This document shows, in pieces, positions 1,934 through 48,879 of a stretch of 49,253 nt of DNA. Positions within the stretch are counted from its first letter, which is position 1, and each line of letters begins with the position of its first letter. Source of the DNA: Candidatus Nealsonbacteria bacterium (GTDB taxonomy: Bacteria > Patescibacteriota > Minisyncoccia > Minisyncoccales > MHMH01); contig JACOYG010000020.1 of assembly GCA_016181985.1 (NCBI GenBank), positions 1 through 49,253 on the forward strand, given 5' to 3'. The notes under the pieces were generated by a model that saw only the letters and a list, made by a program, of their open reading frames with translations, was not told where the DNA came from and did not search any database. The position numbers were made by a program, and so were the translations under genes.

Positions 1934-3418
1934 TTATTTAAAATATTTCTCTTGGTAGATTTTTTTATATTTTTCGAATATCCGATTCCCTTCTTCGTCA
2001 AATTTTTCGGCTATTTTTATCTCCGGCCATTCAGACTTGGGAAATCTGACATACAAAAGAAACGTTCTTTGAAGACCCTTCAATTCTTCATAGCTTACGG
2101 TGTTCATTCGCAGTCTGCCCCCGTCTAACACATGATGAACTCCGTCTCCTTCCTTAAAATATCCCCTCTCAATACAGTATTTATATAAATCTGTTCCCTT
2201 ATATGGAGCAAAGATATAACAATTGATGGTGCGGGAATTAATCTGACGGTTTAGCTCAATCGTATCAAAAATCAAATCTCTCGTTTCGTCGGGAAAACCC
2301 ACGATATTATTGATGGTATAGGGTATCTCATATTGATCCACTATTTTCAAAGCTTCCACTATTTGCCGATTTGATCCATAACGCTTAAGAACTCTTTTGC
2401 GAAATTCTTCGTTACCGTGCTCAATTCCGAAGTTCATGCTGTTGCAGCCCATTTGTTTCAAAATTTTTATTTTTTCTTCGGTCACGGTTTCCGGCCTTGT
2501 TTGACACCAAAAAGGAACCTTAATCTCTTCTTGATATCTAAGAGCGAGCTCCCTTAATTCTTCTACGGGCTTCGCCAAAAATGTTTCAGAATTAAAATTA
2601 ATGTAATCGGGATTATATTTTTTGACTAAATACTTTAATTCGGCTATAAGCCGGTCCGTGCCCTTCCTTCTATAATAGATACCGCAGCCTTCCTCTTGAA
2701 ACAACCGCATTAATTGTGAAGACTCGCAATAAGTGCATTGATAAGGACAGCCCCTGCCCATTTCAACGTGAATTAAGGCAAGAACTTTCCCGAACATCGG
2801 CCTAACTAATCTCTGCCGTCCAAAAATATCATAATCAAGGAAGGGAAGCTTATTGACGTCAACGAGAGGCCTTAGGGAATTTTTAATAATTTTGCCGTCT
2901 TTTTTAATCCAAAGATTCTTTACGGTTGAATAATCTTCGCCTTCGGACATTTTCTGGCAAAGCTCCACTAAGGCCTCTTCTCCCTCGCCCATGCAAATCA
3001 TATTGACAGCGGAGTGATTAATAACTTCTTCTGGAGAAAAGGTGACAAAAACTCCGCCGGCTATCACCGGAATATTAAAACTCTTTATTTTTTCCAGTAA
3101 AGATTGAGCCAATTTCCAGGTATCTTCAACCAGCGTGATGGCAATTAAGTCCGGCTTGAAATCAGCGACTTTTTCCGCCAAATCATCGCAAATATCGCTT
3201 TCCTTGAGAAAAATCCCCTTTTCGGCAAGATTAAAAGGCTTTAACTGCAAAAGCTCCACTCTTCTTTGGTCAAAACTCATTTCTTCCGTTTTGTAAAAAG
3301 TGGTGTCAAACAAATCAACTTCGAAGCCCTTTTCCTTCAAACAGGCGGACAGCAAAGGAAGGTGCACCGGCACCAAACTGTCAAGCATTATGTTCGGATA
3401 TATAAATAATATCTTCAT
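1934..3418 (-). CDS. B12-binding domain radical SAM protein (class B), paralogue 1
   Basis: 494 aa. N-terminal MKILFIYPN...PLLSACLKEKG Rossmann-like segment with a GEGE motif, a GRGCPYQCTYC CxxxCxxC cluster, and GIEHGNEEFRK. The tail WPEIKIAEKFDEEGN is shared with CDS 3539..5044. Confidence 0.85.
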   Translation of the reverse strand: MKILFIYPNIMLDSLVPVHLPLLSACLKEKGFEVDLFDTTFYKTEEMSFDQRRVELLQLKPFNLAEKGIFLKESDICDDLAEKVADFKPDLIAITLVEDTWKLAQSLLEKIKSFNIPVIAGGVFVTFSPEEVINHSAVNMICMGEGEEALVELCQKMSEGEDYSTVKNLWIKKDGKIIKNSLRPLVDVNKLPFLDYDIFGRQRLVRPMFGKVLALIHVEMGRGCPYQCTYCESSQLMRLFQEEGCGIYYRRKGTDRLIAELKYLVKKYNPDYINFNSETFLAKPVEELRELALRYQEEIKVPFWCQTRPETVTEEKIKILKQMGCNSMNFGIEHGNEEFRKRVLKRYGSNRQIVEALKIVDQYEIPYTINNIVGFPDETRDLIFDTIELNRQINSRTINCYIFAPYKGTDLYKYCIERGYFKEGDGVHHVLDGGRLRMNTVSYEELKGLQRTFLLYVRFPKSEWPEIKIAEKFDEEGNRIFEKYKKIYQEKYFK

Positions 3419-3487
3419 GTTTCAACTACTTAAAATTAACATTTTAGAAATTTTTTTGCAATAAGCGCAAAAATTCATAAAGTTCCC

Positions 3488-3538: not shown

Positions 3539-5044
3539 ATGGACCAAGATAAAAAAACGGTGCTGATAATATATCCCGCGTCTTTCAAATTATCGGGATT
3601 GCATATCGGCATAGCTTCATTAAGCGGCGCCCTGAAAAAAAGAGGCTATTTTGTCAAAATTTTTGACACGGTTTTTTATGATTTATTCGGCCAGCAGGAA
3701 TGGGACAAGTTAAGGTCCGACAGGCTAATGTCTAAAAAAATTGTTAACGAAAAAGAACACTGGAAAGTTAAAACCACGGATATGAAAGAAGATCTGATAA
3801 GAATTCTTGACGAGTTTAAACCGAAAATAATCGGCTTATCAATGACAGAACCGGTTTATGACTTAAGTCTGACATTATCCCGCCTGGCAAAGGAAAGATG
3901 CCCGGACGCCATGATCGTAGCCGGCGGCGTTTTCCCTACCCTCTCACCGGACCTTGTCATTAAAGAAAACTCAATTGATGTTCTTTGCGTCGGCGAAGGC
4001 GAACTGGCCCTGCCCGAATTATGCGACAGAGTTTATGAAAAAAAAGATTTTTTTGACATTCCCGGATTATGGGTAAAAGACGGAGGGAAAATTTACAAAA
4101 ATAATCCGGCTAAACTCCAGGATATCAATGATCTGCCTCATCCGGACTTTTCTGTTTTTGACGAGCAAATATTTTATAAAGCGATGCAGGGGAAACTTTA
4201 TAAAATGGCGAATATTGAAACTTCGCGAGGCTGTCCCTATAACTGTTCTTACTGCTCCTCTCCTTACCTGAAAGAATTTTCTTTTAAAAATGAGATCGGC
4301 AGCTATTACAGAAATCTGAAAATGGAAAAAATTATCGAACAAATGCATTATCAGATAGAAAAACACTCCCCGGAATTTATTTATTTCTCAAGCGAAACAT
4401 TTCTGGCGATGCCAAAAAGAGATTTTGATATGTTCATTGAAGAGTATAAAAAAATCAGAATACCGTTTTGGTTCCAAACCCGTTTTGAAACAATAACCGA
4501 AGAGCGCATAAAAGCATTGAAAGACGTCGGCATGTTTTGGCTGACCATGGGAATTGAGCATGGCAACGAAGAATTTAGAAAAAATGTTTTAAAAAGGGCT
4601 TGTCCGGACAGGGTAATTATTGAAGGAGCCGGCATCCTGACAAAATGCGGCGTAGGGGCCTCCTTTAATAACATGATCGGATTCCCTTTCGAAAATCGGG
4701 AACTTATCTTTGAGACAATTAAGCTGAATAAAAAACTATTTGAAATCAGTCCCAATTTTGAATCCAATGTTTTTATGTTCCTCCCATATAAGGGAACTGA
4801 ACTATACGATCTTTGCCGGAGAAACGGCCTTTTGTCTGCTGAAATTTGTTCTCATGGACATAGTTTGAGCGATGAGAGTATTTTAAATTTTCCGGAAGAA
4901 TATAAGCAAGAGCTGAAGGGCTTAATGAAAACATTCAACCTTTACGTCAAGCTCCCCGAGAAATACTGGCCGGAAATAAAAATAGCCGAGCGTTCCGATG
5001 AGGAAGGTAATGCAACATTCAACCGCTTATCGCAATTGCTGTAG
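3539..5044 (+). CDS. B12-binding domain radical SAM protein (class B), paralogue 2
   Basis: 501 aa. VLIIYPASF...IASLSGALKKRG, GEGE, SRGCPYNCSYC, GIEHGNEEFRK, and the tail WPEIKIAERSDEEGN. Transcribed divergently from its closest paralogue, 1934..3418. Confidence 0.85.
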   Translation: MDQDKKTVLIIYPASFKLSGLHIGIASLSGALKKRGYFVKIFDTVFYDLFGQQEWDKLRSDRLMSKKIVNEKEHWKVKTTDMKEDLIRILDEFKPKIIGLSMTEPVYDLSLTLSRLAKERCPDAMIVAGGVFPTLSPDLVIKENSIDVLCVGEGELALPELCDRVYEKKDFFDIPGLWVKDGGKIYKNNPAKLQDINDLPHPDFSVFDEQIFYKAMQGKLYKMANIETSRGCPYNCSYCSSPYLKEFSFKNEIGSYYRNLKMEKIIEQMHYQIEKHSPEFIYFSSETFLAMPKRDFDMFIEEYKKIRIPFWFQTRFETITEERIKALKDVGMFWLTMGIEHGNEEFRKNVLKRACPDRVIIEGAGILTKCGVGASFNNMIGFPFENRELIFETIKLNKKLFEISPNFESNVFMFLPYKGTELYDLCRRNGLLSAEICSHGHSLSDESILNFPEEYKQELKGLMKTFNLYVKLPEKYWPEIKIAERSDEEGNATFNRLSQLL

Positions 5045-6211
5045 CAATGATTTATACCAAGAAAGAGTTTTAGCGACGTGGGTGTCTAAATTGAAATCCT
5101 TTTTAACTCGCTCGTAGCCGGCTTGGCCTAATTTTTTTGCCTTTTGCGGATGTTCCAGCAGATCAATGATTTTTTTTGCCATCAATTCGGCATTAAGCGG
5201 ATTGACCGCATAGCCGGTCAGGCCATCTTTCACTATCTCGGGACTGCCGCCGTAACAAGTAGCAATTACCGGCTTTTTACAGGCCATGGCTTCCAAATTG
5301 CTCCTGGGAAATGGATCTAAATAAATTGACGGCACGACAACAATATCGGCTGACCAGTAAGCGGCTTTTAATTCATCGCCCTCAAGCCAGCCAATACCTT
5401 CTTTTCCGGCAACCAATAAAACAGCTTTGGGCACTTCTTTTTTGACCATATCCATCGCCCGATCAATCTGGCCCAATCCCTTTAAGCCGGAAATTCGGCC
5501 GCCGAAAAAAACTATTTTTTTCCCTAGAAGCCCGCGCTTTTTCTTAAATTTCCTCACGGCATCTTGGCCTATCTTCCAATCGGCAACATCTATGCCCGTA
5601 TAAACGGTTTCCACGTTTTGTATGCCGTTTTGGTTTAAAGCATCTTTCAAGGCATTGCTCACGCTAAAAATTTTATCGGCGTTTTTCAAATATTTTCTGA
5701 TTAAAAAATTTCTAACGGGATTATATCTTTTTTGAGCTTGTTTTAAATTATCCAGCCAAGAAACCTTGGCATCAAAATTATTCAAATAACGTCGGGTCGC
5801 CAATTTACCGTAAGTAAACTCCATGGTGTCCCGCGCCGTGAAAAAAACCGGCTTCTTGAATTCTTTGGCTATTTTCAAGCAATGGTAAGAAAGATACCAA
5901 TTAATATTATGGGCGTGAATAACATCCGGGCTTATTTTTTCAATAAGATACCTGACTTTTCCGACTGCTTGGGGATTATATAAGCTTAAATACGCCCGCC
6001 ATCTTTCATGATAATTGGCGAAAATTCGGAAAATTTGCAAACCCTGATATTTAAAATTTTTCTCGCCGGATTTATCTTGGCAAGTGGTAACAACAAAAAC
6101 TTCGCAACCTGCCTTTTGCAATCCGCGGGCCAAACCAAAAACGGAAAAACCGGCCCCTCCCATGCTTAGGGGCGGAAAATTACCGGCTAAAATTAAAATC
6201 TTAATCCTCAT
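5027..6211 (-). CDS. Glycosyltransferase family 4 (GT-B, retaining type)
   Basis: 394 aa. N-terminal GGAGFSVFGLARGLQKAGCEV and a C-terminal E-x7-E region NLEAMACKKPVIATCYGGSPEIVKDGLTGY. ATGA overlap with the upstream gene. Confidence 0.85.
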   Translation of the reverse strand: MRIKILILAGNFPPLSMGGAGFSVFGLARGLQKAGCEVFVVTTCQDKSGEKNFKYQGLQIFRIFANYHERWRAYLSLYNPQAVGKVRYLIEKISPDVIHAHNINWYLSYHCLKIAKEFKKPVFFTARDTMEFTYGKLATRRYLNNFDAKVSWLDNLKQAQKRYNPVRNFLIRKYLKNADKIFSVSNALKDALNQNGIQNVETVYTGIDVADWKIGQDAVRKFKKKRGLLGKKIVFFGGRISGLKGLGQIDRAMDMVKKEVPKAVLLVAGKEGIGWLEGDELKAAYWSADIVVVPSIYLDPFPRSNLEAMACKKPVIATCYGGSPEIVKDGLTGYAVNPLNAELMAKKIIDLLEHPQKAKKLGQAGYERVKKDFNLDTHVAKTLSWYKSLLQQLR

Positions 6212-7563
6212 GTCTTTAAAAGCGACCCCGCTGACTTATAAATAAATTTGGCGAAAAATCGCAGCCGCGGCCTGGAAATGACAAAATTCTTCAGTTGCTC
6301 CTTTTTTTCTAAAATAGCCTTCTTAACATCGTAATGCTTATAAATGTTGAATTTAAAATTTTGGACGGCCAACTCTATTTCTTTTCTGGAAATAGTGGGA
6401 AGTTCCAGAATAGATTTTTTAAAATAAGTGTCGGCTGAACCGCTCCCTATAAGGCCTTCCTTTATGCATTTTTCCCCTAAAATTGTCCCGGGGCGAAGCC
6501 GAATATTTAAATTAACGGCCTCTTCTATGCTCTTTTTTGTCTCGCCGGGAATGCCGATAATATTAAAAGAATATGTTTTTAATCCGAGGTTTTTCGCTTT
6601 TTTGAAAAGTTCAATAATATCTTGATTGCTGATGCTCCTGCCTAGGGCCTCTTTCCTTAATAATTCATTGCCCGATTCAACGCCAACCTTAATCATGCTG
6701 CAGCCCCCTGCCTTAAGAGCGGCCAGTGATTCGTCGTCCACGCTGCCCGGCCGGATATTGCATTCAAAAGTCATATTAAAATTCTTAGGAAACTTGCCGC
6801 AGAATTCCAGCAGCCAATTTTTGTTTAAAGAAAAGGTGTCATCATCGAGTTTAATATGGCGGAAATTATAATTTTTCTTAAGATCCGCGATCTCTTCAAT
6901 TGCTTTATCCACGCTGCGGAATCTCAAATATTTTCCCAAGCCGGCATATTTTTTATTTAAAGCATGATTGCAGCAGTAAGTGCAATTAAACGGACAGCCC
7001 CGGGAAAAAATGAACCTGGGCATTATCTCTTTTTGTTCATATTTTTTGAAATAACGGAAAATGCGCCTATCGGGAAAAGGAAGTTTATCCAAATCCTCCA
7101 TTAATTTTCGGGATTCATTTTTAATAATTTCCCGGCCCCGCCGAAACCAAAAATTTTTAGTATTAAAATAATCCTCTCCTTTCTGCATCTTATCAATCAA
7201 CTCCAAAAATGATTCCTCTCCCTCCCCCAAACAGACTCCGTCAAATGCCTCCTCTTTCTCTAATGACTCCGGAAATAAAATTATATGTGTCCCTCCGACA
7301 AAAATAGGAATCTGCCGCGCTTTTTTTATAGTTCGGGCGATTTCCCGGGCATGAGAAAATTGATGGGAATTAGTGGAAATACCTATCACATCCGGCCGGC
7401 TTTCTTCTATTCGCTTCAAAAGTTCTGCTTGCTGGCTTAAATTATCTATTTCAAATAAATCAACTTTATGCCCGGCCTTTTTCAAAACTGCCGACATTGA
7501 GGCAATGCCGACGCTCCAAAGGCCGGCTGACCCGATTTGGGGAAAAATAAATAATATTTTCAT
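6208..7563 (-). CDS. B12-binding domain radical SAM protein (class B), paralogue 3
   Basis: Track ORF 6208..7578 begins at a TTG. I prefer ATG 7563 (MKILFIFPQIG), 1 nt after the upstream stop. Motifs GEGE, SRGCPFNCTYC, GVESGNELLRK. The region around the usual PYPGT motif looks shortened (RLRPGTILGEK). Confidence 0.8.
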   Translation of the reverse strand: MKILFIFPQIGSAGLWSVGIASMSAVLKKAGHKVDLFEIDNLSQQAELLKRIEESRPDVIGISTNSHQFSHAREIARTIKKARQIPIFVGGTHIILFPESLEKEEAFDGVCLGEGEESFLELIDKMQKGEDYFNTKNFWFRRGREIIKNESRKLMEDLDKLPFPDRRIFRYFKKYEQKEIMPRFIFSRGCPFNCTYCCNHALNKKYAGLGKYLRFRSVDKAIEEIADLKKNYNFRHIKLDDDTFSLNKNWLLEFCGKFPKNFNMTFECNIRPGSVDDESLAALKAGGCSMIKVGVESGNELLRKEALGRSISNQDIIELFKKAKNLGLKTYSFNIIGIPGETKKSIEEAVNLNIRLRPGTILGEKCIKEGLIGSGSADTYFKKSILELPTISRKEIELAVQNFKFNIYKHYDVKKAILEKKEQLKNFVISRPRLRFFAKFIYKSAGSLLKT

Positions 7564-7564
7564 T

Positions 7565-8371
7565 TTACTTAATTGCAATGAATACCGTGTGCCGCTTATT
7601 ATAAAAACGCCCTTCCTGAAAAATACGCGAAAGAAGGACTCCCAAAGATTCTCTGAATAAGCCGCCGCAGCCGCGCTGTTTTTTTATCTCGAAAATTCTG
7701 GTAATTTTATTTTGGGACTTAAAAGGTATTGCGTCTTTTTCTTTGTTATCGCCGATTACGCCTTTTAAATTATCGCTCTCGTTGAATATTTTTATTATCT
7801 TAAAACCGGTTCCGCCGACAATCTTTTTCGCCTCATTGCGAGTAAAAGCGTAAGGGTGTCCCCAGTTGCCCCTGCCTATGCTTTCTAAAAATACCTTGAC
7901 CGGCTTGACCCACCAAGGAAAAGTATCAACCGTTAAAAACAAGAAGCCCTGCCTTTTTGCGGCTCTGCGCATTTCGGATAAAGTTTTGAGAGGATCTTGA
8001 ATATGATCTATAAAATTCGTAGAAATTATCACATCAAAAAAATCATCGGGGAACGGCAAATTCTCTCCGCGTCCTTCCACCCATCTAACCTCTTTATGCA
8101 TATCAAAATTCTGCAGAAAATAATTCATCAGCGTATCCAAGCCGTACCTTTCTCCTTGATCAAGGTAATTAATCAAGCCGCCCAGTCCGCAACCTACATC
8201 TAAAATTTTACTATCGGGGCCGAAATTTACGTATTTTTTTAACAAATCTGCCTGGTATCTGCGGTATTCGCCGGTTCTTTCTTGCCGCTCGCGATTGCCC
8301 TTCCATCTCTTTTCCCAGTGGTCCTTATGGGCTTTTTGAGCCAATTCGTATCTTTGGTTTGAAATAATCAT
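7565..8371 (-). CDS. Class I SAM-dependent methyltransferase (Methyltransf_11-like)
   Basis: Motif I ILDVGCGLGGLINYL, plus FDVIISTNFIDHIQDP and RQGFLFLTV. Start set at ATG 8371 (MIISNQRYEL), which forms an ATGA overlap with the stop of 8368..9306. The track start 8407 would overlap the upstream gene by 40 nt. Confidence 0.8.
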   Translation of the reverse strand: MIISNQRYELAQKAHKDHWEKRWKGNRERQERTGEYRRYQADLLKKYVNFGPDSKILDVGCGLGGLINYLDQGERYGLDTLMNYFLQNFDMHKEVRWVEGRGENLPFPDDFFDVIISTNFIDHIQDPLKTLSEMRRAAKRQGFLFLTVDTFPWWVKPVKVFLESIGRGNWGHPYAFTRNEAKKIVGGTGFKIIKIFNESDNLKGVIGDNKEKDAIPFKSQNKITRIFEIKKQRGCGGLFRESLGVLLSRIFQEGRFYNKRHTVFIAIK

Positions 8372-9306
8372 TTGCGTAAAGGAAAATATCTTCTGGAAAA
8401 ATAACAATTAATGCACGAAGGGAAACTCTTATAATTTATTTCGGAAAACTTCTCTCTTATTTCATTAAATTCTTTGCCGTTCCATAAATCATACAGATTA
8501 TAATTTTCCGTCATGCGTCCTGCGATAAGATCATCCGCCATCATGGCATTGCAGCAAAGGCGAACTTCGCCGTCCCAATCAACGGTCATACGGCTGAAAG
8601 GAAAAGAGCAAGGCACCTGCATATATGTGCCCCTCAACAGCTTGGGAAGTTTTAAGAAACCCGCCCAGTTTGCCATTATTTTCGGCTCATGAGTATCAAA
8701 ATTCAAATTGTTATATTTTTGATAAAACTCTTTTTGATAGGCGGGTATTTCTTCTAAAAAATCGCTGAACGGCCTTAATCTGATCTGCCCCTTAAAACCG
8801 GCTTTTTCGGCGGCGGCTAAAAACGAATGTATGTTTTTTAAAACATTGTCATATGCCCCGACGCCGACTATTTTATTATAATTTTCCCTGTTGAGCGTAT
8901 AAAAAGAAACTTCCACCAAGTCGGTTTTAGCGTCAATGAGAGCTTGGGATATTTCCCGGCTGACGCTTAAAAAATTCGTGGAAATATGTATTTTTAAGCC
9001 GCGGGAAGAAGCGTAGTTGAGAAAATCAATAAACTTAGGATGCAAAGTGGCTTCGCCGAATAAGCCAAATCCCAAATTGGTTTTTGAATGAAATTTATCC
9101 GCTAGGCAATCCGCCAAAGACCTAAAAAGGGATTCTTCCATAAATCCCCTGTTCTTTTTTATGCTGCCGTTCAGACAAAAAGAGCACTTCAGATTGCAGG
9201 AATTAGTCAGCCCAATATCAACCTCTCTGGGAAACTGCAGAACAATCGGCTTGTCGGCCATGCCTGCTTTTCTGGCAATTTTGTAAAAAATATCCGGTAT
9301 TCTCAT
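8368..9306 (-). CDS. Radical SAM protein with a Cys-rich C-terminal SPASM/twitch-like region
   Basis: N-terminal cluster TNSCNLKCSFC. C-terminal VPCSF...VRLCCNAMM...FPSCINC. Start set at ATG 9306 (MRIPDIF), an ATGA overlap with the stop of 9303..10268. Confidence 0.75.
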   Translation of the reverse strand: MRIPDIFYKIARKAGMADKPIVLQFPREVDIGLTNSCNLKCSFCLNGSIKKNRGFMEESLFRSLADCLADKFHSKTNLGFGLFGEATLHPKFIDFLNYASSRGLKIHISTNFLSVSREISQALIDAKTDLVEVSFYTLNRENYNKIVGVGAYDNVLKNIHSFLAAAEKAGFKGQIRLRPFSDFLEEIPAYQKEFYQKYNNLNFDTHEPKIMANWAGFLKLPKLLRGTYMQVPCSFPFSRMTVDWDGEVRLCCNAMMADDLIAGRMTENYNLYDLWNGKEFNEIREKFSEINYKSFPSCINCYFSRRYFPLRK

Positions 9307-16181: not shown

Positions 16182-16745
16182 TCATATTGATACGATTACG
16201 GTAATAATGAAAAGCCGGGATAAAAGTATCCCGGCTATGGTTGGCAAATCTTTGATTTGTCTTTTTTTGATCATCTCCATTGCTTCGGAGGGCGTAACCT
16301 CCATAACATCGATTTCCCGATCTTCTTCCAGTAATTTCCTGTCTTCCACTTTCAGAAGATTCCAAGCCAGAAATAAATGGCAGGCACAGCCGACGAAACG
16401 CGAAGTATCCTGGCTGAAATCGGATATTTCCAACAGATTGCCGGGGAAATAACCGGTTTCCTCAAGTAATTCCCTTGAGGCCGCGCTTTCGGGCGTTTCA
16501 CGACTAATGGAACCGGCGGGCAATTCAATTGAGATGTCGCCGAGCCCGGGACGATAATGCTTAACCAGAACTATCTTACTATCCTTAGTGATGGCAACGA
16601 TATGAACAGAATGCGGTTTCTCAAATAAATAGTAGTCTTTAATAATGGTGCCATCGGGGCGACGAAAATCTTTCTTAAAAAGTTTAAAAAACGTCGTTCT
16701 GATGCTGATCCGAGAGACTAATTCTTGCCAGCCCTTATTCCTCAC
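16182..16745 (-). CDS. NUDIX hydrolase (ADP-ribose pyrophosphatase-like)
   Basis: 187 aa with a canonical Nudix box, GSISRETPESAASRELLEETGY. Confidence 0.8.
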   Translation of the reverse strand: MRNKGWQELVSRISIRTTFFKLFKKDFRRPDGTIIKDYYLFEKPHSVHIVAITKDSKIVLVKHYRPGLGDISIELPAGSISRETPESAASRELLEETGYFPGNLLEISDFSQDTSRFVGCACHLFLAWNLLKVEDRKLLEEDREIDVMEVTPSEAMEMIKKRQIKDLPTIAGILLSRLFIITVIVSI

Positions 16746-17715: not shown

Positions 17716-17746
17716 TAACACATCATCACCCTTACGTCAAATAGAA

Positions 17747-22972: not shown

Positions 22973-22996
22973 TAACGTACGCGTTTAACAGTAAAT

Positions 22997-23028
22997 AAAA
23001 ATCCCATCCTTATTCGGATCGGATTTTT
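22997..23028 (+). terminator. Weak hairpin / attenuator candidate between the SDR gene and hddA
   Basis: AAAAATCC...GGATTTTT 8-bp AT-rich stem with a 16-nt loop that holds a nested ATCC/GGAT stem. Low GC, so function is doubtful. Confidence 0.2.
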
Positions 23029-24073: not shown

Positions 24074-24074
24074 T

Positions 24075-31788: not shown

Positions 31789-31790
31789 AA

Positions 31791-33630: not shown

Positions 33631-33686
33631 AAATTGTGATAGAAAAAATAGTAAAAAACAGGTCGGCTTACCGGCTATTTAAAAAA

Positions 33687-40850: not shown

Positions 40851-40863
40851 ATTAATAAAAAAA

Positions 40864-42255: not shown

Positions 42256-43649
42256 TTTTTTATGGTTTTGCGATGCTTAAAAACTGTTCTTAAAAGATTG
42301 AAGGGGTGTCTTAAAAAATAAGCGAATTTGGCTCTCTTCACATAACTATAAATTTGCTCATAGGTCAAATCCGGCTGCTCAAAAACCGGCATAAAAATAC
42401 AGGGATCCAGGGGCGGGTAAGACCTGTCCCTTTCGTAATACTTTGCCCAAGAAAAATTTTGAGGCAGGGTTCCCATTTCTTTGGCCATCGTTTCCAATTC
42501 CGTGCCGGGGTAAATTACGGATATCCCCTGGGTGGTGCCCTCAACTCCTAAATTATAATACAAATATCGGCTTAAAAAAACCGTCTTTTTAATATCCTCG
42601 TAAGTTTCTCCCGGCAGACCATGCATAAAAAAAGCCTTGAGGCCGATGCCCGCTTTTTTGATAATTTTTGCGGCCTCAATCGCCTGCTCCACGGTTATGC
42701 TTTTTTTAATATTTTTCAAAATCCTGTCGCTGCCCGATTCAACGCCAAGGTCAATAAATTCGCAGCCGGCTTTTTTCATGGCCATGATAATTTCCTCATC
42801 AACGGTATTGGCCCTCACTTCGCATTCCCAGACAAAATTAAGCTTTCTCTTTACGATTTCATCGCATATCGCCAAAACCCTTTTTTTATCCATAGTCAGA
42901 ACATCATCAAAAAATCTTATTCCCTCAATAAAGGAGTACTCTTTCAAGATGAGCTCGATTTCATCAACCACATTCTTGGGCGACCTGTGCCTGATTTGAT
43001 GCCCCCATTGTTCCGAAGTTGAGCAATAAACGCACCAATAGGGACATCCGCGGCTGGTCATCACGTTTAATGTCCTTTTATTTGATAAAGTAGTGGTCTT
43101 GTCGTATTTTTCTATGGGCAAAAGGTCCCTGGCCGGCAAGGGCAAACCGTCTAAATCATGGATCGGCAATTCCGGAGGATTATGAACAATCATTCCATCT
43201 TTATTGCGGAAAGAGATGCCTTTAACGCCTGAAAAATCTTTCCCCGCTTCAATGCTTTTAACTAAATTCAAAAAAGAAATTTCTCCTTCACCTCTCACGA
43301 TAACGTCAATTTCTGGAATATTTTCCAGGGTATCTTGGGGAGTAAGGGTCGGATGGGGGCCGCCGGCCGCAATGGGAGCTTTCGGGAATTCTTTTTTGAT
43401 TAATCTTGCCAATTCAAAGGCCGAAAATCTGATCTGCGTGCCAAAAGATATGCCGATTAAATCCGGCCCCTCTTTTTTCAGCAATTCAATAATGTTTTCA
43501 TTGGAATAATGGTTAGCCATGCTGTCAATTAAAACGATATCCTTAAAGCCGTTTTGCCTTAAAAACGCGGCCAGCCAAGCAATGCCGAGAGGCGGCATGC
43601 TTTGTTTTGTCTGGTAAATATTCGGGGGAAAAATTAAAACAATTTTCAT
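42225..43649 (-). CDS. B12-binding domain radical SAM protein (class B), paralogue 10
   Basis: Track start 43676 is the ATG at the centre of palindrome copy D. I use ATG 43649 (MKIVLIFPP), consistent with the paralogue N-termini. GGPHPT, GEGE, SRGCPYWCVYC, LGVESGSDRIL. Confidence 0.85.
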   Translation of the reverse strand: MKIVLIFPPNIYQTKQSMPPLGIAWLAAFLRQNGFKDIVLIDSMANHYSNENIIELLKKEGPDLIGISFGTQIRFSAFELARLIKKEFPKAPIAAGGPHPTLTPQDTLENIPEIDVIVRGEGEISFLNLVKSIEAGKDFSGVKGISFRNKDGMIVHNPPELPIHDLDGLPLPARDLLPIEKYDKTTTLSNKRTLNVMTSRGCPYWCVYCSTSEQWGHQIRHRSPKNVVDEIELILKEYSFIEGIRFFDDVLTMDKKRVLAICDEIVKRKLNFVWECEVRANTVDEEIIMAMKKAGCEFIDLGVESGSDRILKNIKKSITVEQAIEAAKIIKKAGIGLKAFFMHGLPGETYEDIKKTVFLSRYLYYNLGVEGTTQGISVIYPGTELETMAKEMGTLPQNFSWAKYYERDRSYPPLDPCIFMPVFEQPDLTYEQIYSYVKRAKFAYFLRHPFNLLRTVFKHRKTIKKWLTTKTEQK

Positions 43650-43659
43650 CTTGTATCTA

Positions 43660-43691
43660 TATCCGTTCCTTGCCATGGCAAGGAACGGATA
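43660..43691. repeat. Cistron-junction palindrome, copy D (type I): perfect 32-nt dyad TATCCGTTCCTTGCCATGGCAAGGAACGGATA
   Basis: Read directly. It lies between the stop at 43706 and the start at 43649 of two radical SAM genes. It differs from copy A only at one symmetric position pair (T..A versus G..C). Confidence 0.9.
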
Positions 43692-43705
43692 GTATTCTAA
43701 CTTTA

Positions 43706-45091
43706 TTATATTGAAAATATAGCCAGAGCTCCCCTGATATATCTTTTTAAATCTTCAAAGCTTCTGACTGAAATCAATTTCGGTATAATATATCCCCAAC
43801 GGAAGTAAAATTTTATGAAAGCGTATTTTTTCATCTCTTGCAATTCGTTTATACTTTTATATCCCGAAGGCAAAAATGTCGCAAAATAACCGGTGAGCTT
43901 ATCGTACGATTCATCTAAAATTTTCCCCCATTTTCCTTCTTTGATCTCTTTATAAATAACCGTGCCGGGATAGGGCGTCAAGATATTAAACTTAACATAA
44001 TCCGGGTTTAAAGCGCAAAGTATTTTGAGTGATTTTCTGACTTTTTCCGGAGTTTCTTTGGGCAAGCCCAAAATTAAGTTTGCCCTGATTTCAATTCCGG
44101 CTTCTCTCGTCCATTTAAAAGCGGCGGATATTTTTTCTAATGTTATTTTTTTATTGATAGCGTCCAATATTTCCTGATCCAAGCTTTCTATCCCAAAAAA
44201 AATGCACCAGCAGCCGGCTTTTTTCATCTTTTTCAGCAGTTCGCCGTCTACGGTATCAACCCGGCATTCGCAAGACCAGGTGATATCTATTTTTTCAGTT
44301 AAAATTTGACTGCAAAAATCATCAATCCATGCCTTATTGATCCCCCAAACGTCATCCCAAAAATTCACCTCCTTTATGCCGTAATCTTTGATCAGATGCT
44401 TGATTTCGCCGATAACATTGCCGACCGATCTCGACCTGTAGAGCCGCGTCCAAAGCGTTTCTACGTCGCAAAAAGTGCAATTAAACGGACAGCCGCGGCT
44501 CACCATCATCGTAGTCATGGGCAATCTTTTATATTGGTTAGGCGAGGGCTTGTATTTGCCGACAGGAACCAGGTGCCTGGCAGGCAAAGGCAGAGAATCA
44601 AGATTTTTTATCAATTCCCTGGCGGGATTTATTATTGCTTTTCCGTTTTGCTTAAAACCGACGCCTTTGACCATTTCCGGATTATTTATCGATCTCAATA
44701 ATTCAACGGCGCTGATTTCCCCTTCCCCTACTACCACATAATCAACCTGTCTATTGCTTAAAACCTCCATGGGTTTTGTTGTCACATGGGGGCCTCCAAA
44801 AATGACGGGGACGTCAAGATTATCCTTTATTTCTTCAGCTAATTCAAGGGCTTTGCGATAATTTGACGTGTTGCAATAAATGCCGATAATATCGGGATTC
44901 CCCGCTTCTTTTATATCCCAAGTTTGAATTTGAGTGTCGAAAATCTTAACGCGATACCCTTCTTTCTCCAAAGCCGCGCCTATGTAGAGCAAACCGAGCG
45001 GCGGCAAAGAACTGCCTATCTTCTCTATCCCCCGGCCATATCTCTCTTTCATGGAGAATGGCGGCATAATCAGTAAGATATCTTTAATCAT
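43706..45091 (-). CDS. B12-binding domain radical SAM protein (class B), paralogue 11
   Basis: 461 aa. ILLIMPP, GGPHVT, GEGE, SRGCPFNCTFC, FGIESLDQEIL and TPYPGTVIY. Confidence 0.85.
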   Translation of the reverse strand: MIKDILLIMPPFSMKERYGRGIEKIGSSLPPLGLLYIGAALEKEGYRVKIFDTQIQTWDIKEAGNPDIIGIYCNTSNYRKALELAEEIKDNLDVPVIFGGPHVTTKPMEVLSNRQVDYVVVGEGEISAVELLRSINNPEMVKGVGFKQNGKAIINPARELIKNLDSLPLPARHLVPVGKYKPSPNQYKRLPMTTMMVSRGCPFNCTFCDVETLWTRLYRSRSVGNVIGEIKHLIKDYGIKEVNFWDDVWGINKAWIDDFCSQILTEKIDITWSCECRVDTVDGELLKKMKKAGCWCIFFGIESLDQEILDAINKKITLEKISAAFKWTREAGIEIRANLILGLPKETPEKVRKSLKILCALNPDYVKFNILTPYPGTVIYKEIKEGKWGKILDESYDKLTGYFATFLPSGYKSINELQEMKKYAFIKFYFRWGYIIPKLISVRSFEDLKRYIRGALAIFSI

Positions 45092-45780
45092 TTTTTCTTG
45101 CCCAAGTAATAAAAACTAAAAGCGATATTTTCTGCAGGGCCGTATCTGTAAAATAAATAATCTAGAAACTTTAGCGGGAAAGTTAGCGCCGTAAAAATTA
45201 TCAGCCATAATTGATACGTCTTGTCAGACCCGAAACAAAAAATCATAGCCAGCCATTGATTGAATACGGAAAGAAAACCGGAGGTCGGGCCGTGCCGGAT
45301 GCCGCTTTTCAATTTTAAAAATCCGGCGCTTTCCATGGTCGCCTCTAGCCCGTTTTTGGTAAAACGATAATAATCATCGGGAGAGGAATGATACCCGGCT
45401 ACGAATGGAACGGCAATATAAATCAATCCTCCCGGCTTCAGCGCTCTAGCCATCTCAAGCAAAGCCCTGTCCGGATTATTGAGGTGTTCCAAAACCTGAT
45501 CGCAAATTACGGCATCTGCTTCATTCTCGGCAAAAGGCAAATTATAAATATCCCCCACGATATCCACATTATGATAAGCATGGATATCCATATTGATGAC
45601 ATCTTTCCTGATTCTTTGGGTACCCGAACCTAAATTGACAATCTTGCCGCTTATCCCCTTGATGGCTTCTTCTGGTCCCAAACCGACTTTCAATGCCCCA
45701 AAAAGCCAACGGGCGGTTTTGAATAAAAAAACATGTTCCTTGAGAAGATTTTTAAAATTATATATGATATTATCTTTCAT
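45088..45780 (-). CDS. Class I SAM-dependent methyltransferase (Methyltransf_11-like) with a hydrophobic C-terminus
   Basis: 230 aa. IVNLGSGTQ, ADAVICDQVLEHLNNPDRALLEMARALKPGGLIYI. ATGA overlap with the downstream radical SAM gene. Confidence 0.8.
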   Translation of the reverse strand: MKDNIIYNFKNLLKEHVFLFKTARWLFGALKVGLGPEEAIKGISGKIVNLGSGTQRIRKDVINMDIHAYHNVDIVGDIYNLPFAENEADAVICDQVLEHLNNPDRALLEMARALKPGGLIYIAVPFVAGYHSSPDDYYRFTKNGLEATMESAGFLKLKSGIRHGPTSGFLSVFNQWLAMIFCFGSDKTYQLWLIIFTALTFPLKFLDYLFYRYGPAENIAFSFYYLGKKK

Positions 45781-47470
45781 AAATTATGAATTCCCCGATT
45801 TCGGCAGCTTTTTTTAAAAACGGGTACTGATCGAGCTGCCATTTAGGATTGGATTCTTTATCCCAAATTAAATAATTTACTTCGTATTTTTGCAGCATTT
45901 CATTGAATAAATCGGGGGTTGCCGCGGCAAAAGATTCTTGATATCTCCGGACTAAATCCAAAACGACTCCGTCCGGTATATTTTCATATTCTCCAAAAAG
46001 ATCGCGGTAATATATTCCATAGATTGCCCAGGATATGTTTTCTTTGTCCCCCAAAAAGACATCTTTTGCCTGCGCTTCAGCGACACCATCTAATCTGTAG
46101 TATAAAAAGAAGGTATTTATCAGGCGTTCGGTCGTAGCGGACAAAGAATATTTCGCCGAATGGTGATAGAAAACATTCAAGGATGTGTGAGTAACGATTA
46201 AATTGGCGATCGCGTCGTTGCTGAAAACAACCTCTTCTTTTTTGGCGTTTTTATTAAACCAATCCATTAAGGGGCCGTATTTTTGAATTTTAACGATCGT
46301 CTCTTTGCTGGCGGAATAAGAAATGCTCTGAACAAAAATACCCAGGGAAATGCTGATGACAATAAAAAAAATAGCCAGCGCCTTTTTGGCAAATTGCCAT
46401 TTTCTTAAAGAAAGAACGGAAAAAAGGATGATTAAGAGAATGATCAGGGCTAAGGGTTTGTGATAATACCAATGATAATGAGAAGGACTCAGGGCCTTGC
46501 CGGTGATTAATTGCTGATTTAAAACCACAAAAGGCGCGATAACCAAAGCCAGGGCAAAATAATACCGTTCCTTCCATTTTCTGGGAAATAAAATCAAGAA
46601 AAGAACAAGAAGCATGGGAGGCAAAATTCCCATAGATAATTCGCGGCCCCCCATCAAACCGGCCCTTGCCCCCACATCGCCAAAGGTCGGATAAGCAGCT
46701 GCCCGATAGAGATTAATAAAATAAGGAATGGCAATTAAAATTGCCCCCAAAAGAACGACGGCAATCCTTTTAATGTCCTGCCATTTTTTTTGACAAAGGA
46801 ATATCAGAATAAGAATACCGCAAAAAGCATATAAAAAAGTCCAGGTGTAAAGAAAATCGTAGAAAGACAATCCTAATATTAAAGCGCTTAAAATTCCCCA
46901 GCGCCATTGCTTCCTTTCTATAAAAAGCCAAAAAAACAATAAAAACCCGAAAAAGAAAATCCAAGTCAGGGCCGGGTTAACCGGGCGGGTGAGCAATAAA
47001 TAGTATGGCTTTAGTGTCGCCCCGCGGTTAAAAATAGAGATAGCCAAAAGAAAAACCGATGGGATAGACAGAGAGATTATTTTTTCCTTGGTAAAGAAAA
47101 ACAAGAAAGCGTAAATTATTAAAAAAAGCAGGGAAGTAAAAAACAATCGGGAAAATAAAATTGTATCATTAATGTTCAAAGAAAAAAGTTGGCCCGAATA
47201 AGCCACGATTATTGTTCCGAGCGGCTGAAAAAGATAGGGATCGCTTTTGCCGTCTTTAAAATAAGTTGAACTGAAAGCGGGGTGCCCATCCTGAACCTCT
47301 TTAACGCGCGACATCCAAGCGCTTTCGTCATCGGAAGCTCCCATTAGCCCGATTCCTTGGTAGGAATCGCCTAAATCCCAACGCGAATAAATCTGGGGAT
47401 AAGCAACGACGATGGCTGTCGCTAAAGCAAGAAAAATTGCCCACTTATGATTTTTAAAAATTTGCGCCAT
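45770..47470 (-). CDS. Polytopic membrane protein with a C-terminal soluble domain, GT-C-like candidate
   Basis: 566 aa. The first loop after TM1 has an acidic motif (GASDDESAW), there are about 11 TM helices, and a ~170-aa hydrophilic C-terminal domain. Assigned by architecture only. Confidence 0.45.
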   Translation of the reverse strand: MAQIFKNHKWAIFLALATAIVVAYPQIYSRWDLGDSYQGIGLMGASDDESAWMSRVKEVQDGHPAFSSTYFKDGKSDPYLFQPLGTIIVAYSGQLFSLNINDTILFSRLFFTSLLFLIIYAFLFFFTKEKIISLSIPSVFLLAISIFNRGATLKPYYLLLTRPVNPALTWIFFFGFLLFFWLFIERKQWRWGILSALILGLSFYDFLYTWTFLYAFCGILILIFLCQKKWQDIKRIAVVLLGAILIAIPYFINLYRAAAYPTFGDVGARAGLMGGRELSMGILPPMLLVLFLILFPRKWKERYYFALALVIAPFVVLNQQLITGKALSPSHYHWYYHKPLALIILLIILFSVLSLRKWQFAKKALAIFFIVISISLGIFVQSISYSASKETIVKIQKYGPLMDWFNKNAKKEEVVFSNDAIANLIVTHTSLNVFYHHSAKYSLSATTERLINTFFLYYRLDGVAEAQAKDVFLGDKENISWAIYGIYYRDLFGEYENIPDGVVLDLVRRYQESFAAATPDLFNEMLQKYEVNYLIWDKESNPKWQLDQYPFLKKAAEIGEFIIYER

Positions 47471-48879
47471 TAGATTTTAATCAAATCGCAAAAAGATTTC
47501 ACCGACCTTTCCACGTCATAATATGTTCTGATCTTTAAAAGATACTTTAATAAATAAGCGGGTCTAAGGTAAAAACCCTTATTAGCTTCTTTAACAAGTT
47601 TTGTTTGCTTGGCTGGCGGAAAATTTTTAAGGTTTAAATTTCCGCTGGCTTCTCTGGCGTCGGAAGAAACCGCAACTCTCTTCATATACCAAAATCTGTC
47701 CGGCAAGGCATTGTTTTCAACGGCCCATTTATAAAGTTCGGTTCCGGGATAAGCCGCTGTTGTCCCAAAAGTGGCTAAATCCAAACCAAGTTTTTGCGAA
47801 AATTTTATCGTCTCCCTGGCATCGTCTTCGGTTTCTGTCGGATTGCCAATCATAAAATAACCCATGGCTTCAATCCCTGATTTTTTACAAAGAGAGATCG
47901 CCCGCTCTACCTGTTCAAGGGTGATTCCTTTGCGCATAACATCCAAAATTCGCTGGCTGCCCGATTCTATGCCGAATGAAATCATATAACATCCGCTTTT
48001 TTTCATGGTTTTGAACAGTTCTTCGTCAACTAAGTCAACCCTGGTATTGCAAGTCCATGTTATTCGAATATTTCTTTTATCGATTTCGGAGCAAATTTCT
48101 CGAACCCAATTCTTATTTAATGTAAGATCGCTGTCTTTGAACATGAATTGTTTTATTCCGTATTTTCGATGATTATTTTCTATTTCATCAACAATATTTT
48201 CAGGAGTTCTTAATCTTAATATCTTGCCGTGAGTCAAATGAGCATCGCAAAAAATACAACCGTAAGGGCATCCTCGCGATGCCATTAAAGACGCCAAGGG
48301 AAGAGATTTGGCGAAATAACTGTCATATTTCTTGATATCTAACAATGCCAAATCAGGAAAAGGAAGATCGTCTAACTCCCGTATTAGCTGAGGCGGGCTG
48401 TTAATTATTATTTTGTTCCCATTTTTATAAATCAATCCGTTAATTTCTTCTAGGGGCTGGCCGGCAGCTAATTTATAAAAATTCTCCTCTCCTTCGCCAT
48501 AAAACAAAAAATCTATATCTTCGCTAAAATTGAATATTTCGTCTTTAGTCGAACTGATGTGCGGACCGCCAACGGCAATTTTTAAAGAGGGGCAGCGTTT
48601 TTTTAATTCGGCGGCGGCCTCTAAAACGGCTTTTGCTTGGCAAGACATTGCGCTAAACCCCACTAATGACGGATTTTCTTTTAGGATAATTTCCACAAGT
48701 TCATCTAAGGTATACCCATTAACAAAGGAATCGATGATCTTCACGGCAATCCCATTTTTTTGCAGAAAAGCTGCTATATAAAGGATGCCCAGCAAGGGAT
48801 AGGCGAAATTTTTACCCTTTCCAAAAATTATCGAAGGAGAAACCAAAACAACCGTATTTACTGGCTTTATGCCGGTCAT
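47470..48879 (-). CDS. B12-binding domain radical SAM protein (class B), paralogue 12
   Basis: 469 aa. GGPHIS, GEGE, SRGCPYGCIFC, FGIESGSQRIL and AAYPGTELY. ATGA overlap with the upstream GT2 and a TAATG overlap with the downstream gene. Confidence 0.85.
   Translation of the reverse strand: MTGIKPVNTVVLVSPSIIFGKGKNFAYPLLGILYIAAFLQKNGIAVKIIDSFVNGYTLDELVEIILKENPSLVGFSAMSCQAKAVLEAAAELKKRCPSLKIAVGGPHISSTKDEIFNFSEDIDFLFYGEGEENFYKLAAGQPLEEINGLIYKNGNKIIINSPPQLIRELDDLPFPDLALLDIKKYDSYFAKSLPLASLMASRGCPYGCIFCDAHLTHGKILRLRTPENIVDEIENNHRKYGIKQFMFKDSDLTLNKNWVREICSEIDKRNIRITWTCNTRVDLVDEELFKTMKKSGCYMISFGIESGSQRILDVMRKGITLEQVERAISLCKKSGIEAMGYFMIGNPTETEDDARETIKFSQKLGLDLATFGTTAAYPGTELYKWAVENNALPDRFWYMKRVAVSSDAREASGNLNLKNFPPAKQTKLVKEANKGFYLRPAYLLKYLLKIRTYYDVERSVKSFCDLIKI

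Follow-up and report, generated by a model that had tools for sequence, protein, structure and literature searches.

Candidatus Nealsonbacteria are ultra-small, uncultured groundwater bacteria, and a single contig from this lineage raises the question of what such a cell would make with fourteen radical S-adenosylmethionine (SAM) enzymes whose genes are interleaved with those of glycosyltransferases (GTs). The contig, JACOYG010000020.1, was analysed over its entire length of 49,253 bp, referred to here as the window, and its genes are named by the first coordinate of their open reading frames (ORFs). It belongs to a metagenome-assembled genome (MAG) of Candidatus Nealsonbacteria bacterium (Patescibacteria group, Parcubacteria group, Candidatus Nealsoniibacteriota). 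The encoded proteins are identical to NCBI entries MBI2041581-MBI2041621 (HYT20_* locus tags), where the radical SAM proteins carry generic names, and these exact matches vindicate a preliminary description, made from the sequence alone, that had guessed at a host from the candidate phyla radiation (CPR). Twelve of the radical SAM enzymes have the two-domain layout of class B, the cobalamin-binding type, and two resemble enzymes with twitch or SPASM domains. On the evidence of gene content and genomic context, the region is probably a cell-surface glycoconjugate locus whose radical SAM enzymes tailor sugars.

The fourteen genes sum to 19,137 nt, i.e. 38.9% of the window, close to the 19,047 nt and roughly 39% calculated beforehand. 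They form part of a tightly packed array of 43 ORFs in four transcription blocks, in which the summed ORF lengths reach about 96.5% of the window (overlaps counted twice) and a single intergenic gap exceeds 320 bp. Start and stop codons overlap as ATGA at seven junctions, five of which involve a radical SAM gene, so that the genes are indeed interleaved and often ATGA-coupled, as had been claimed. The 3' ends of convergent genes likewise overlap, by 18 nt between 3539-5044(+) and 5027-6211(-) and, with ORF starts as listed, by 49 nt between 37160-38563(+) and 38515-39576(-), which leaves no space for terminators between the opposing units. The GC content is even (0.36-0.44), and scans of the window for tRNAs, Rfam RNAs and an integrase found none. 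Because gene order is in addition kept in relatives, the region is a chromosomal locus, and a mobile island was rejected.

Radical SAM genes of the window

Profile matches were judged against Pfam gathering scores (32.1 bits for the B12-binding domain PF02310; 29.5 bits for Radical_SAM PF04055). All twelve paralogues of 450-501 aa lie above both cut-offs, at 35.2-90.4 and 76.5-108.2 bits, respectively, the N-terminal domain thus matching the B12-binding model in every case. The [4Fe-4S] motif CxxxCxxC is likewise present in all twelve; each ORF occupies the coordinates given for it in the preliminary description and carries exactly the cysteine string quoted there. The class B layout proposed there is corroborated by these Pfam matches together with the fold of a structural model of 42225, discussed below. 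The finer motifs are less uniform. GEGE occurs in nine of the twelve, exactly as counted before, and is missing from 28558, 35748 and 39498. A GG dipeptide is also found in nine, the strict form GGPHx[ST] in six, and G[VIL]ESG, GLPGET and PYPGT in about four to six paralogues each, with variants; the motif set assigned earlier is hence a valid consensus but not a universal signature.

Pairwise identities among the paralogues range from 22 to 39%, with the exception of 34297 and 37160 (62%), and three subgroups can be distinguished. Subgroup A comprises the genes at 1934..3418 (minus strand; 494 aa, GCPYQCTYC; B12-binding 53.4 bits, Radical_SAM 76.5 bits; 39% identity to 3539), 3539..5044 (plus strand; 501 aa; 55.7 and 77.2 bits) and 6208..7578 (minus strand; 456 aa; 72.4 and 91.1 bits), the last being ATGA-coupled to the GT4 gene 5027. 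Subgroup B1, in which GGPHx[ST] and GEGE are both kept, consists of 34297, 37160, 40864, 42225, 43706 and 47470. Subgroup B2 (28558, 35748 and 39498) has lost the GG dipeptide, which is replaced by LVGSHVS, AVGTFVM and LLDSHIS, along with GEGE and an upstream G-x-S strand motif, and has the lowest B12-domain scores of all paralogues (35-45 bits). Its HpnJ-like member at 28558..29955 (plus strand) reaches 35.2 bits for B12-binding and 88.6 bits for Radical_SAM, and scores 343.9 bits against the HpnJ family at a cut-off of 577.6. The other two lie next to B1 genes. Three ATGA-coupled genes at 34297..38563 (plus strand) encode a B1 (34297-35751), a B2 with degenerate B12 motifs (35748-37163) and a further B1 enzyme (37160-38563), while a run of four at 39498..45091 (minus strand) begins with B2 (39498-40850) and continues with three B1 genes (40864-42255, 42225-43676 and 43706-45091). 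The remaining B1 gene is located at 47470..48879 (minus strand; 469 aa; 65 and 102.9 bits).

Each paralogue is closer to an orthologue in another genome than to any paralogue within the window. For instance, 42225 scores 654-810 bits against orthologues in the related loci L018-L020 but at most about 290 bits against its own paralogues. Comparable orthologue scores were obtained for 43706 (800 bits, L019), 6208 (863 bits in L103, 562 bits in L104), 3539 and 1934 (967 and 850 bits, L105) as well as 28558, 39498 and 47470 (720, 781 and 917 bits, L004); among GTDB species representatives, the closest match of 28558 has 68% identity. Because the orthologues elsewhere are far closer than the paralogues alongside, the sequences mark the twelve as ancient, distinct and separately conserved functions and not as the outcome of recent tandem amplification. 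As a separate observation, the pair 34297-35751(+) and 37160-38563(+), the sole recent duplication at 62% identity, flanks the divergent B2 gene 35748. Since L004 also carries two copies, both of which score best to 37160, this duplication is older than the split of these genomes.

The two remaining enzymes differ in how clearly they belong to the twitch/SPASM group to which both had been assigned. The product of 8368..9324 (minus strand; CNLKCSFC) is twitch-type, with 50 bits for Radical_SAM and 40.9 bits for SPASM (PF13186; cut-off 21.5 bits). That of 27417..28568 (plus strand; CNLKCRHC) matches Radical_SAM (73.2 bits) and Fer4_12 (39.2 bits), whereas its SPASM score of 16.9 bits remains below the cut-off, so that only a partial SPASM/twitch C-terminus can be recognised. 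Both proteins feature five C-terminal cysteines, compared with seven in a full SPASM domain: in 8368 their spacing is twitch-like (C239-x17-C257 ... C304-x2-C307), in 27417 they occupy positions 305, 323, 356, 358 and 362. The sole PDB sequence match of 8368 is BtrN, a weak one (E 7e-5) confined to the cluster-binding loop, while the best matches of 27417 are the peptide maturases SkfB and CteB, with the tetraether synthase 7TOL among its weak ones. The triad of GT4, short-chain dehydrogenase/reductase (SDR) and twitch gene is kept in L103 and L105, and in L019 the 8368 orthologue adjoins heptose genes. Plausibly, 8368 would oxidise or epimerise a nucleotide sugar, a substrate that is preferred over an aminocyclitol because the gene is conserved beside a 4,6-dehydratase-like SDR and a GT4.

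With regard to density, 35 metagenomic loci were sampled as background; each spans no less than 12 kb and was anchored on a class B relative with an identity of 29-41%. The alignment-based scan reduced to the generic pattern RGCP[YFN]xCx[YF]C, and the loci are to be taken as a background sample and not as orthologues. They hold one to five class B genes each (median two; maximum five per approximately 21 kb); 20 of the 35 contain at least two class B genes, and 15 contain at least two glycan-type genes. By comparison, the window has nine class B genes in its densest 20.3 kb and twelve in 47 kb, and close relatives have eight per 19-21 kb. The window locus is the extreme end of a real clustering tendency, not a qualitatively isolated case.

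Linkage to glycan genes in related genomes

The association of radical SAM and glycan genes noted in the window recurs in its relatives (L004, L103, L014, L105, L019, L018 and L020), and is kept in every relative neighbourhood examined. Orthologues of single paralogues at 55-92% identity are distributed across Parcubacteria, where they are located beside genes for GT9, GT4, GT2 and GT-C enzymes, the flippase Wzx and heptose synthesis of the GDP or ADP type. Both arms of the window are reproduced in one related MAG, represented by L004 and L103, with eight class B genes in 19 kb; the arm in L103 has a gene order identical to that of the window (GT4, SDR, twitch, methyltransferase, class B, GT4). 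The right arm recurs in the same order in L014, which includes counterparts of the trio 34297-37160 and an orthologue of 47470. In L105, heptose genes, DUF2304, GT2, GT-C, a gene for a 328-aa protein, NUDIX, GT4, SDR, twitch and class B genes follow one another as in the window.

A particularly informative arrangement is found on a 414-kb contig (L019), where one block unites orthologues from both arms of the window: the GT-C gene 45770, the methyltransferase gene 45088, the class B genes 43706 and 42225 (a pair kept at 800 and 810 bits), GT9, GmhA, a PfkB kinase, an adenylyltransferase-like protein with a haloacid dehalogenase (HAD) domain, the twitch gene 8368, a methyltransferase and the GT4 gene 5027. 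Here the heptose set (L019:11472-15234) is of the ADP type, comprising PfkB kinase and cytidylyltransferase-like plus HAD domains along with GT9, whereas the window set (20824-24689) is of the GDP type, with a GHMP kinase and NTP_transferase plus HAD domains and no GT9. Since one pathway takes the place of the other in the same gene context, there is a good case that heptose as such is what counts in the locus. Additional GT9, Wzx and class B genes are present in L018 (Buchananbacteria) and L020.

Moreover, relatives encode three proteins in which radical SAM domains are joined to GT or methyltransferase domains. A GT4, a B12-binding and a Radical_SAM domain share one ORF in L020 (1-2766), with an additional N-terminal methyltransferase in the full called gene; in L018, a PMT_2 (GT-C) domain is joined to Radical_SAM and SPASM domains (6072-8636), and a B12 radical SAM enzyme to a MetW-like methyltransferase (3-2108). 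A module has also been exchanged: where the window has the methyltransferase and class B gene 6208 downstream of the twitch gene, L105 has a sulfotransferase domain, joined in one protein to the orthologue of the GT4 5027 (10936-12939). The GT fusions and the interchange with a sulfotransferase are the strongest available arguments that the radical SAM enzymes would act in sugar tailoring.

Beyond close relatives, named orthologues of 42225 come almost exclusively from Nealsonbacteria, Buchananbacteria, Portnoybacteria, Falkowbacteria and the 'Patescibacteria group', with one (49% identity) from a Chloroflexota MAG. Distant homologues at 45-49% identity, in a Chloroflexota MAG and beside an STT3/AglB gene, are situated among GT4, SDR, DegT and UDP-glucose dehydrogenase genes. 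Matches of 28558 in the genome collection (Woesearchaeota, Peribacteria, Nitrospirae and others) mostly have GT, SDR or nucleotidyltransferase genes as neighbours. On a contig of Candidatus Woesearchaeota (L005, JAGVXQ010000031), radical SAM ORFs, three class B-type and four SPASM-like, were observed interleaved with GT2 and GT4 genes; this being a DPANN contig, similar loci occur in ultra-small archaea as well.

Glycan machinery and a proposed pathway

Apart from the radical SAM genes, the locus consists of genes for glycan assembly. The GT2, GT4 and GT-C genes, the carbamoyltransferase, the three methyltransferases and the flippase-like gene listed in the preliminary description were all recovered with Pfam or NCBIfam. 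In the left arm (minus strand), a GT4 gene at 5027..6211 (Glycos_transf_1 101.9 bits, Glyco_transf_4 82.6 bits) has orthologues in L019, L103 and L105, and a class I SAM methyltransferase gene at 7565..8407 (Methyltransf_11 59.2 bits) has one in L103. They are followed, past the twitch gene, by an NDP-sugar 4,6-dehydratase-like SDR at 9303..10268 (GDP_Man_Dehyd 268.6 bits; LegB, Gmd and RmlB are its best NCBIfam matches, all below cut-off) and a second GT4 at 10265..11350 (Glycos_transf_1 144.9 bits).

The central part would provide precursors and membrane-bound steps. A GT-C membrane glycosyltransferase at 17747..19804 (minus strand; NCBI name GT39) matches PMT_2 with 33.2 bits (cut-off 26.1), has 12 hydrophobic segments and scores 724 bits against its L105 orthologue. 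It diverges from a gene pair at 19845..20827 (plus strand) for a polyprenyl-phosphate sugar synthase-like GT2 (Glycos_transf_2 103 bits) and a small DUF2304 membrane protein (79.3 bits), the best NCBIfam matches of the GT2 being PpgS (159 bits; cut-off 370), AglJ and a Dol-P hexose transferase. The adjacent NDP-heptose supply genes (20824..25428, plus strand) were assigned with Pfam and NCBIfam as a fusion of an HddC-like nucleotidyltransferase with a GmhB-like phosphatase, together with an SDR, a GHMP kinase (HddA-like), a SIS isomerase (GmhA-like) and a transaldolase, of which the transaldolase exceeds its equivalog cut-off (312.6 against 282 bits). Two GT2 genes follow at 25432..27420 (plus strand; Glycos_transf_2 97.5 and 90 bits).

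The right arm encodes putative decorating enzymes and further membrane proteins. Genes at 29962..33450 (plus strand) encode an O-carbamoyltransferase (Carbam_trans_N 348.6 bits, Carbam_trans_C 241.3 bits), an SxtJ-like membrane protein (28.2 bits) and an SGNH/GDSL esterase-like protein (Lipase_GDSL_2 38.2 bits), and a methyltransferase of the Methyltransf_24 type is located at 33528..34370 (plus strand; 52.8 bits). On the minus strand, the flippase-like protein at 38515..39576 matches LPG_synthase_TM (126.9 bits) and the flippase-like domain TIGR00374 (101 bits; cut-off 43), while the class I SAM methyltransferase gene at 45088..45780 (Methyltransf_11 55 bits; orthologue in L019) is ATGA-coupled to the class B gene 43706. 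The next gene, 45770..47470 (minus strand), encodes a 566-aa protein annotated as hypothetical, with ten hydrophobic segments and no matching model in Pfam or NCBIfam. Its predicted structure has a mean predicted local distance difference test (pLDDT) score of 91.6, and its top 25 Foldseek matches in the PDB, among them AftA, PglB, STT3, DPY19, ArnT, Pmt4 and ALG12, are all GT-C enzymes (template modelling, TM, score 0.37-0.57). Homologues with identities of 42% or higher fall into more than 120 clusters, the named ones coming only from Parcubacteria/Patescibacteria or from an unclassified 'bacterium', and the family alignment has 36 invariant columns across 44 sequences. Going by the predicted fold, 45770 is a previously unannotated family of GT-C glycosyltransferases, named only in CPR genomes. 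At the right end, the C-terminal 125 aa of a GT2 (48879..49253, minus strand), with 85.6% tblastn identity to the GT2 following the 47470 orthologue in L014, are cut by the contig end, so that the locus extends past the window.

From these components a probable pathway can be outlined. Sedoheptulose-7-phosphate from the transaldolase would be converted to NDP-heptose by the GmhA-like, HddA-like and GmhB-HddC-like enzymes, and nucleotide sugars would be remodelled in the cytoplasm by SDR dehydratases or epimerases and the twitch enzyme 8368. The GT2 and GT4 enzymes would build an oligosaccharide, probably on a polyprenyl-phosphate carrier, while the PpgS-like GT2 with its DUF2304 partner would make a polyprenyl-phosphate monosaccharide. 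Subsequently, lipid-linked intermediates would be moved outward by the flippase-like protein and their sugars passed to a surface acceptor by the two GT-C enzymes, 17747 and 45770. The twelve class B-type and two twitch/SPASM enzymes would tailor the nucleotide- or lipid-linked sugars, each by abstraction of a hydrogen atom via the 5'-deoxyadenosyl radical, and methyl, carbamoyl and acyl groups (sulfate in relatives) would be added as further decoration. A bolder reading, less likely true than not, is that Parcubacteria build a heptose-containing surface glycoconjugate whose sugars undergo up to a dozen distinct radical reactions (such as C-methylation, deoxygenation, ring contraction or C-C bond formation), most of them dependent on cobalamin that these reduced-genome episymbionts would have to scavenge.

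A few genes lie apart from these functions. The locus is flanked by a small PaaX_M-domain protein (48..629, minus strand; 66 bits), a possible regulator whose orthologue (329 bits) adjoins that of 3539 in L105. At 16182..17721 (minus strand), a NudE/NudK-like NUDIX hydrolase (NUDIX 48.5 bits, NudE 53 bits) is encoded together with the conserved 328-aa protein 16735-17721(-), for which Pfam and NCBIfam returned no match; the L105 orthologues of the two (220 and 525 bits) hold the same position adjoining the GT-C gene. The glycan locus is interrupted at 13906-16123(-) by genes for an S51 peptidase and for a RecQ helicase that is short (418 aa) and has a Zn-binding domain but no HRDC match; L105 has neither of them at the corresponding place. 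The left-arm operon is headed by a secreted 559-aa protein, 11477-13156(-), with an N-terminal hydrophobic segment, a Pro/Gln-rich tail and no Pfam match. Its six repeats, each about 51-53 aa long, follow the pattern C-x6-C-x2-[YF]C-x8-C-x2-F[AN], the cysteines total 32, and the protein may serve as a glycoprotein acceptor or be cargo with no relation to the locus. Because L105 keeps the NUDIX and 328-aa genes and lacks the others, the former are regarded as parts of the locus, and the S51 peptidase, RecQ and Cys-rich protein as insertions. The sole sizeable gap (13157-13905) accommodates two small ORFs, namely 13159-13422(-), 87 aa with one hydrophobic segment, and 13652-13843(-), whose 63-aa product, with CKCAHH at the N-terminus, HCKCC at the C-terminus and a hydrophobic core, is a possible metal-binding membrane peptide.

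Substrate, cofactor and comparison with known systems

Several observations weigh against sugar tailoring by these enzymes, or against parts of the pathway outlined above. The assignment of sugars as substrates draws wholly on gene neighbourhood and fusions. No paralogue reaches the cut-off of any NCBIfam equivalog, the scores against these families and the PDB profiles serving as a proxy for placement relative to characterised enzymes such as GenK, Fom3 and CysS. The best family is HpnJ for nine of the twelve (95-344 bits against 577.6), BchE (TIGR02026) for two (at best 232.6 bits, for 37160, against 481) and the ladderane-lipid enzyme for one (6208; 134 bits against 360); these nearest curated families act on a lipid-linked sugar, a porphyrin and a lipid, respectively. 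The four adjacent heptose enzymes have GmhB, HddC, HddA and GmhA as best or near-best matches but score below the cut-offs in all cases (140.7/178, 110/300, 134/600 and 91/209 bits), so that the enzyme set of the GDP-heptose pathway named in the preliminary description is recognisable by best match, though below equivalog level. A GT9 heptosyltransferase, sought in the window with a hidden Markov model built from three GT9 proteins of relatives, gave no match, and a cobalamin riboswitch was likewise not found there. Finally, the structure of AprD4 fits the model of 42225 as well as those of true cobalamin enzymes do, and cobalamin binding is thus unreadable from sequence or fold.

Given these placements, the radical SAM enzymes might instead modify a lipid, either the polyprenyl carrier or host-derived membrane lipids, by methylation, cyclisation or cross-linking, while the GTs build a glycolipid head group. 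The preponderance of HpnJ among the best families, the ladderane-lipid match of 6208, the LPG_synthase_TM protein with weak HpnL and HpnB matches in the window and the tetraether synthase among the weak matches of 27417 would all be in keeping with this. Nonetheless, it is unlikely, for the lipid-family scores are all two- to sixfold under their cut-offs, lipid-synthesis genes were found neither in the window nor in related loci, and the fusions to GT4, GT-C and methyltransferase domains as well as the sulfotransferase as swap partner are typical of enzymes that decorate sugars. Even HpnJ is credited with a reaction on the sugar portion of its substrate, which counts against the lipid alternative as well.

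A protein or peptide could also be the substrate, whether a ribosomally synthesised and post-translationally modified peptide (RiPP) or a secreted glycoprotein such as the Cys-rich 11477-13156, which the GTs would then glycosylate. The RiPP enzyme ApyD and rSAM_ocin_1 are indeed among the mid-ranking NCBIfam matches, 27417 is nearest to peptide maturases, and the six-repeat protein at the head of the left-arm operon has, in L103, an orthologue (791 bits) some 6 kb away from that arm. There, however, unrelated genes part it from the arm, and it is absent from L105, L019, L018 and L020, all of which keep the radical SAM/GT modules. In addition, RiPP family scores are far under cut-off and the packing leaves no space in which small precursor genes could adjoin those of the radical SAM enzymes; in the gap 13157-13905, a search for RiPP precursors yielded only the two small membrane-protein ORFs, which are not precursor-like. 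A peptide substrate is thereby given little credence, and much the same low probability attaches to a soluble, secreted small molecule of the aminoglycoside, cyclitol or heptose-nucleoside type in place of a surface polymer. For the latter it can be argued that the solved structures nearest in sequence are those of AprD4 and BtrN, both of aminoglycoside pathways, and that natural-product clusters, too, are known to contain heptose genes (septacidin heptose pathway) and a carbamoyltransferase partnered by an SxtJ-like protein. On the other hand, two GT-C enzymes, a PpgS-like GT2 with DUF2304, a flippase-like protein and, in relatives, Wzx indicate lipid-linked assembly and surface export, and Pfam revealed neither a 2-deoxy-scyllo-inosose synthase nor aminotransferase, exporter or resistance genes in the window. 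Although each of the three alternatives has something in its favour, none accounts for the fusions, the synteny and the membrane-export machinery as well as a surface glycan tailored by radical SAM enzymes does.

For such a glycan, the role of cobalamin has to be considered separately. Of the two paralogues searched against the PDB, both have AprD4 (6FD2) as best sequence match (28558, E 4e-34; 42225, E 7e-25), followed by QCMT (9CCB), OxsB, TokK, CysS and TsrM, and the AprD4 family (NF033070) scores 54-133 bits across the paralogues (cut-off 500), with the maximum in 28558. HpnJ scores are strongest (28558) or joint-strongest in subgroup B2, which also accounts for three of the five top AprD4 scores. 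The AlphaFold model of 42225, built from 53 sequences (pLDDT 93.7; predicted TM score 0.90), matches OxsB, TsrM, QCMT, TokK, CysS and AprD4 at TM scores of about 0.7, the N-terminal Rossmann domain included. Structure prediction hence supports the class B fold, yet as a test for cobalamin it is non-discriminating, since AprD4 scored the same as OxsB, TsrM and TokK. AprD4 and ArsL homologues occur in the B12 radical SAM similarity network although they bind no cobalamin, no structural feature distinguishes methylases from non-methylating members (section 6), and the non-methylating BchE, HpnJ and ladderane enzymes fall in the largest and least explored group (PMC12931638, a 2026 review). The class B architecture accordingly implies neither C-methylation nor that all twelve use cobalamin, and these two points of the preliminary description are not established: three paralogues lack both GG and GEGE and have the lowest B12-domain scores, and the best families HpnJ, BchE and ladderane enzyme, albeit at scores far below cut-off, are non-methylases. 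Plausibly, the nine paralogues that retain GG and GEGE would use cobalamin, for C-methylation or another cobalamin-assisted step, whereas for the B2 paralogues (28558, 35748 and 39498) rearrangement, ring contraction or deoxygenation is the likelier reaction, and they may act without cobalamin.

Class B radical SAM enzymes are among the largest pools of enzymes of unknown function, with approximately 83,600 sequences that fall into over 100 groups, of which the largest are unexplored (PMC12931638). For these enzymes, the window and its relatives constitute a defined and repeatable genomic setting of heptose supply, GT9/GT4/GT-C genes and GT fusions, which comprises at least twelve orthologous groups and points to nucleotide- or lipid-linked sugars as substrates. 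The surface of CPR cells mediates their episymbiotic lifestyle and is chemically uncharacterised, and the share given over to radical tailoring, about 39% of 49 kb in a small genome, suggests strong selection on surface chemistry. If the dozen or so radical reactions of the bolder reading are confirmed, the locus would represent glycan chemistry without characterised precedent; if the need for cobalamin is real, it would be a dependency that present accounts of CPR metabolism do not consider, one linked to the cell surface and possibly to the attachment to a host. As a by-product, the analysis adds the unannotated GT-C family of 45770.

The known sugar-acting relatives, i.e. GenK, GenD1, Fms7, MoeK5, HpnJ, AprD4 and BtrN, come from antibiotic or hopanoid pathways, in which they are found singly. 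Hopanoid-associated HpnJ (TIGR03471), to which the conversion of a lipid-linked sugar's glucosamine to a cyclitol ether downstream of a GT2 is ascribed, has its two-domain layout in common with the window paralogues, and 28558 aligns to positions 2-462 of the 472 in its model. The paralogues differ by their low HpnJ scores and by lying, within a CPR genome, among heptose, GT4 and GT-C genes; in the window, neither a squalene-hopene cyclase nor hpn genes were found, apart from weak sub-threshold matches of HpnA, HpnB and HpnL to generic SDR, GT2 and flippase-like proteins. AprD4, the radical SAM 1,2-diol dehydratase by which a sugar is deoxygenated in apramycin synthesis, is comparable by its carbohydrate substrate and by its match to the 42225 model (TM about 0.70-0.75). 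Its alignment to 28558 and 42225, however, is confined to the radical SAM core and the C-terminal part, and it binds no cobalamin (PMC12931638), whereas nine window paralogues keep the B12-domain motifs. GenK, GenD1/GntE, Fms7 and MoeK5, listed as Csp3-methyltransferases (PMC12931638), are likened to the paralogues by description, as class B enzymes that tailor sugar carbons alongside glycosyltransferases; they occur as one or two per actinomycete antibiotic cluster, compared with twelve in this CPR surface-glycan locus.

With respect to the other components, the auxiliary-cluster spacing of 8368 (C-x17-C ... C-x2-C) presumably resembles that of BtrN, the twitch dehydrogenase of butirosin synthesis, but the sequence match is weak and 8368 is located beside a 4,6-dehydratase-like SDR and a GT4. 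The GDP-D-glycero-alpha-D-manno-heptose pathway of S-layer glycan and capsule loci is paralleled by GmhA, HddA, GmhB and HddC-like enzymes and a transaldolase to supply sedoheptulose-7-phosphate; unlike in that pathway, HddC and GmhB are fused in the window, all four are sub-cut-off, and relatives feature the ADP type with GT9. The succession of GT2 19845 and DUF2304, divergent from a GT-C gene, recalls systems of a polyprenyl-phosphate sugar synthase, a small membrane partner and a GT-C enzyme, such as mycobacterial PpgS/Rv3632/Rv3779 and ArnC/ArnT, although the GT2 remains at 159 bits against the PpgS cut-off of 370. In the full-text literature searched, class B radical SAM enzymes are described neither from CPR glycan loci nor from any surface-polysaccharide pathway, and within this literature no characterised equivalent was found, in line with the preliminary description. 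Taken together, these comparisons suggest that the locus is known in kind, as glycan biosynthesis with tailoring enzymes, and that it would be notable for its scale, its taxon, its fusions and the chemistry it implies.

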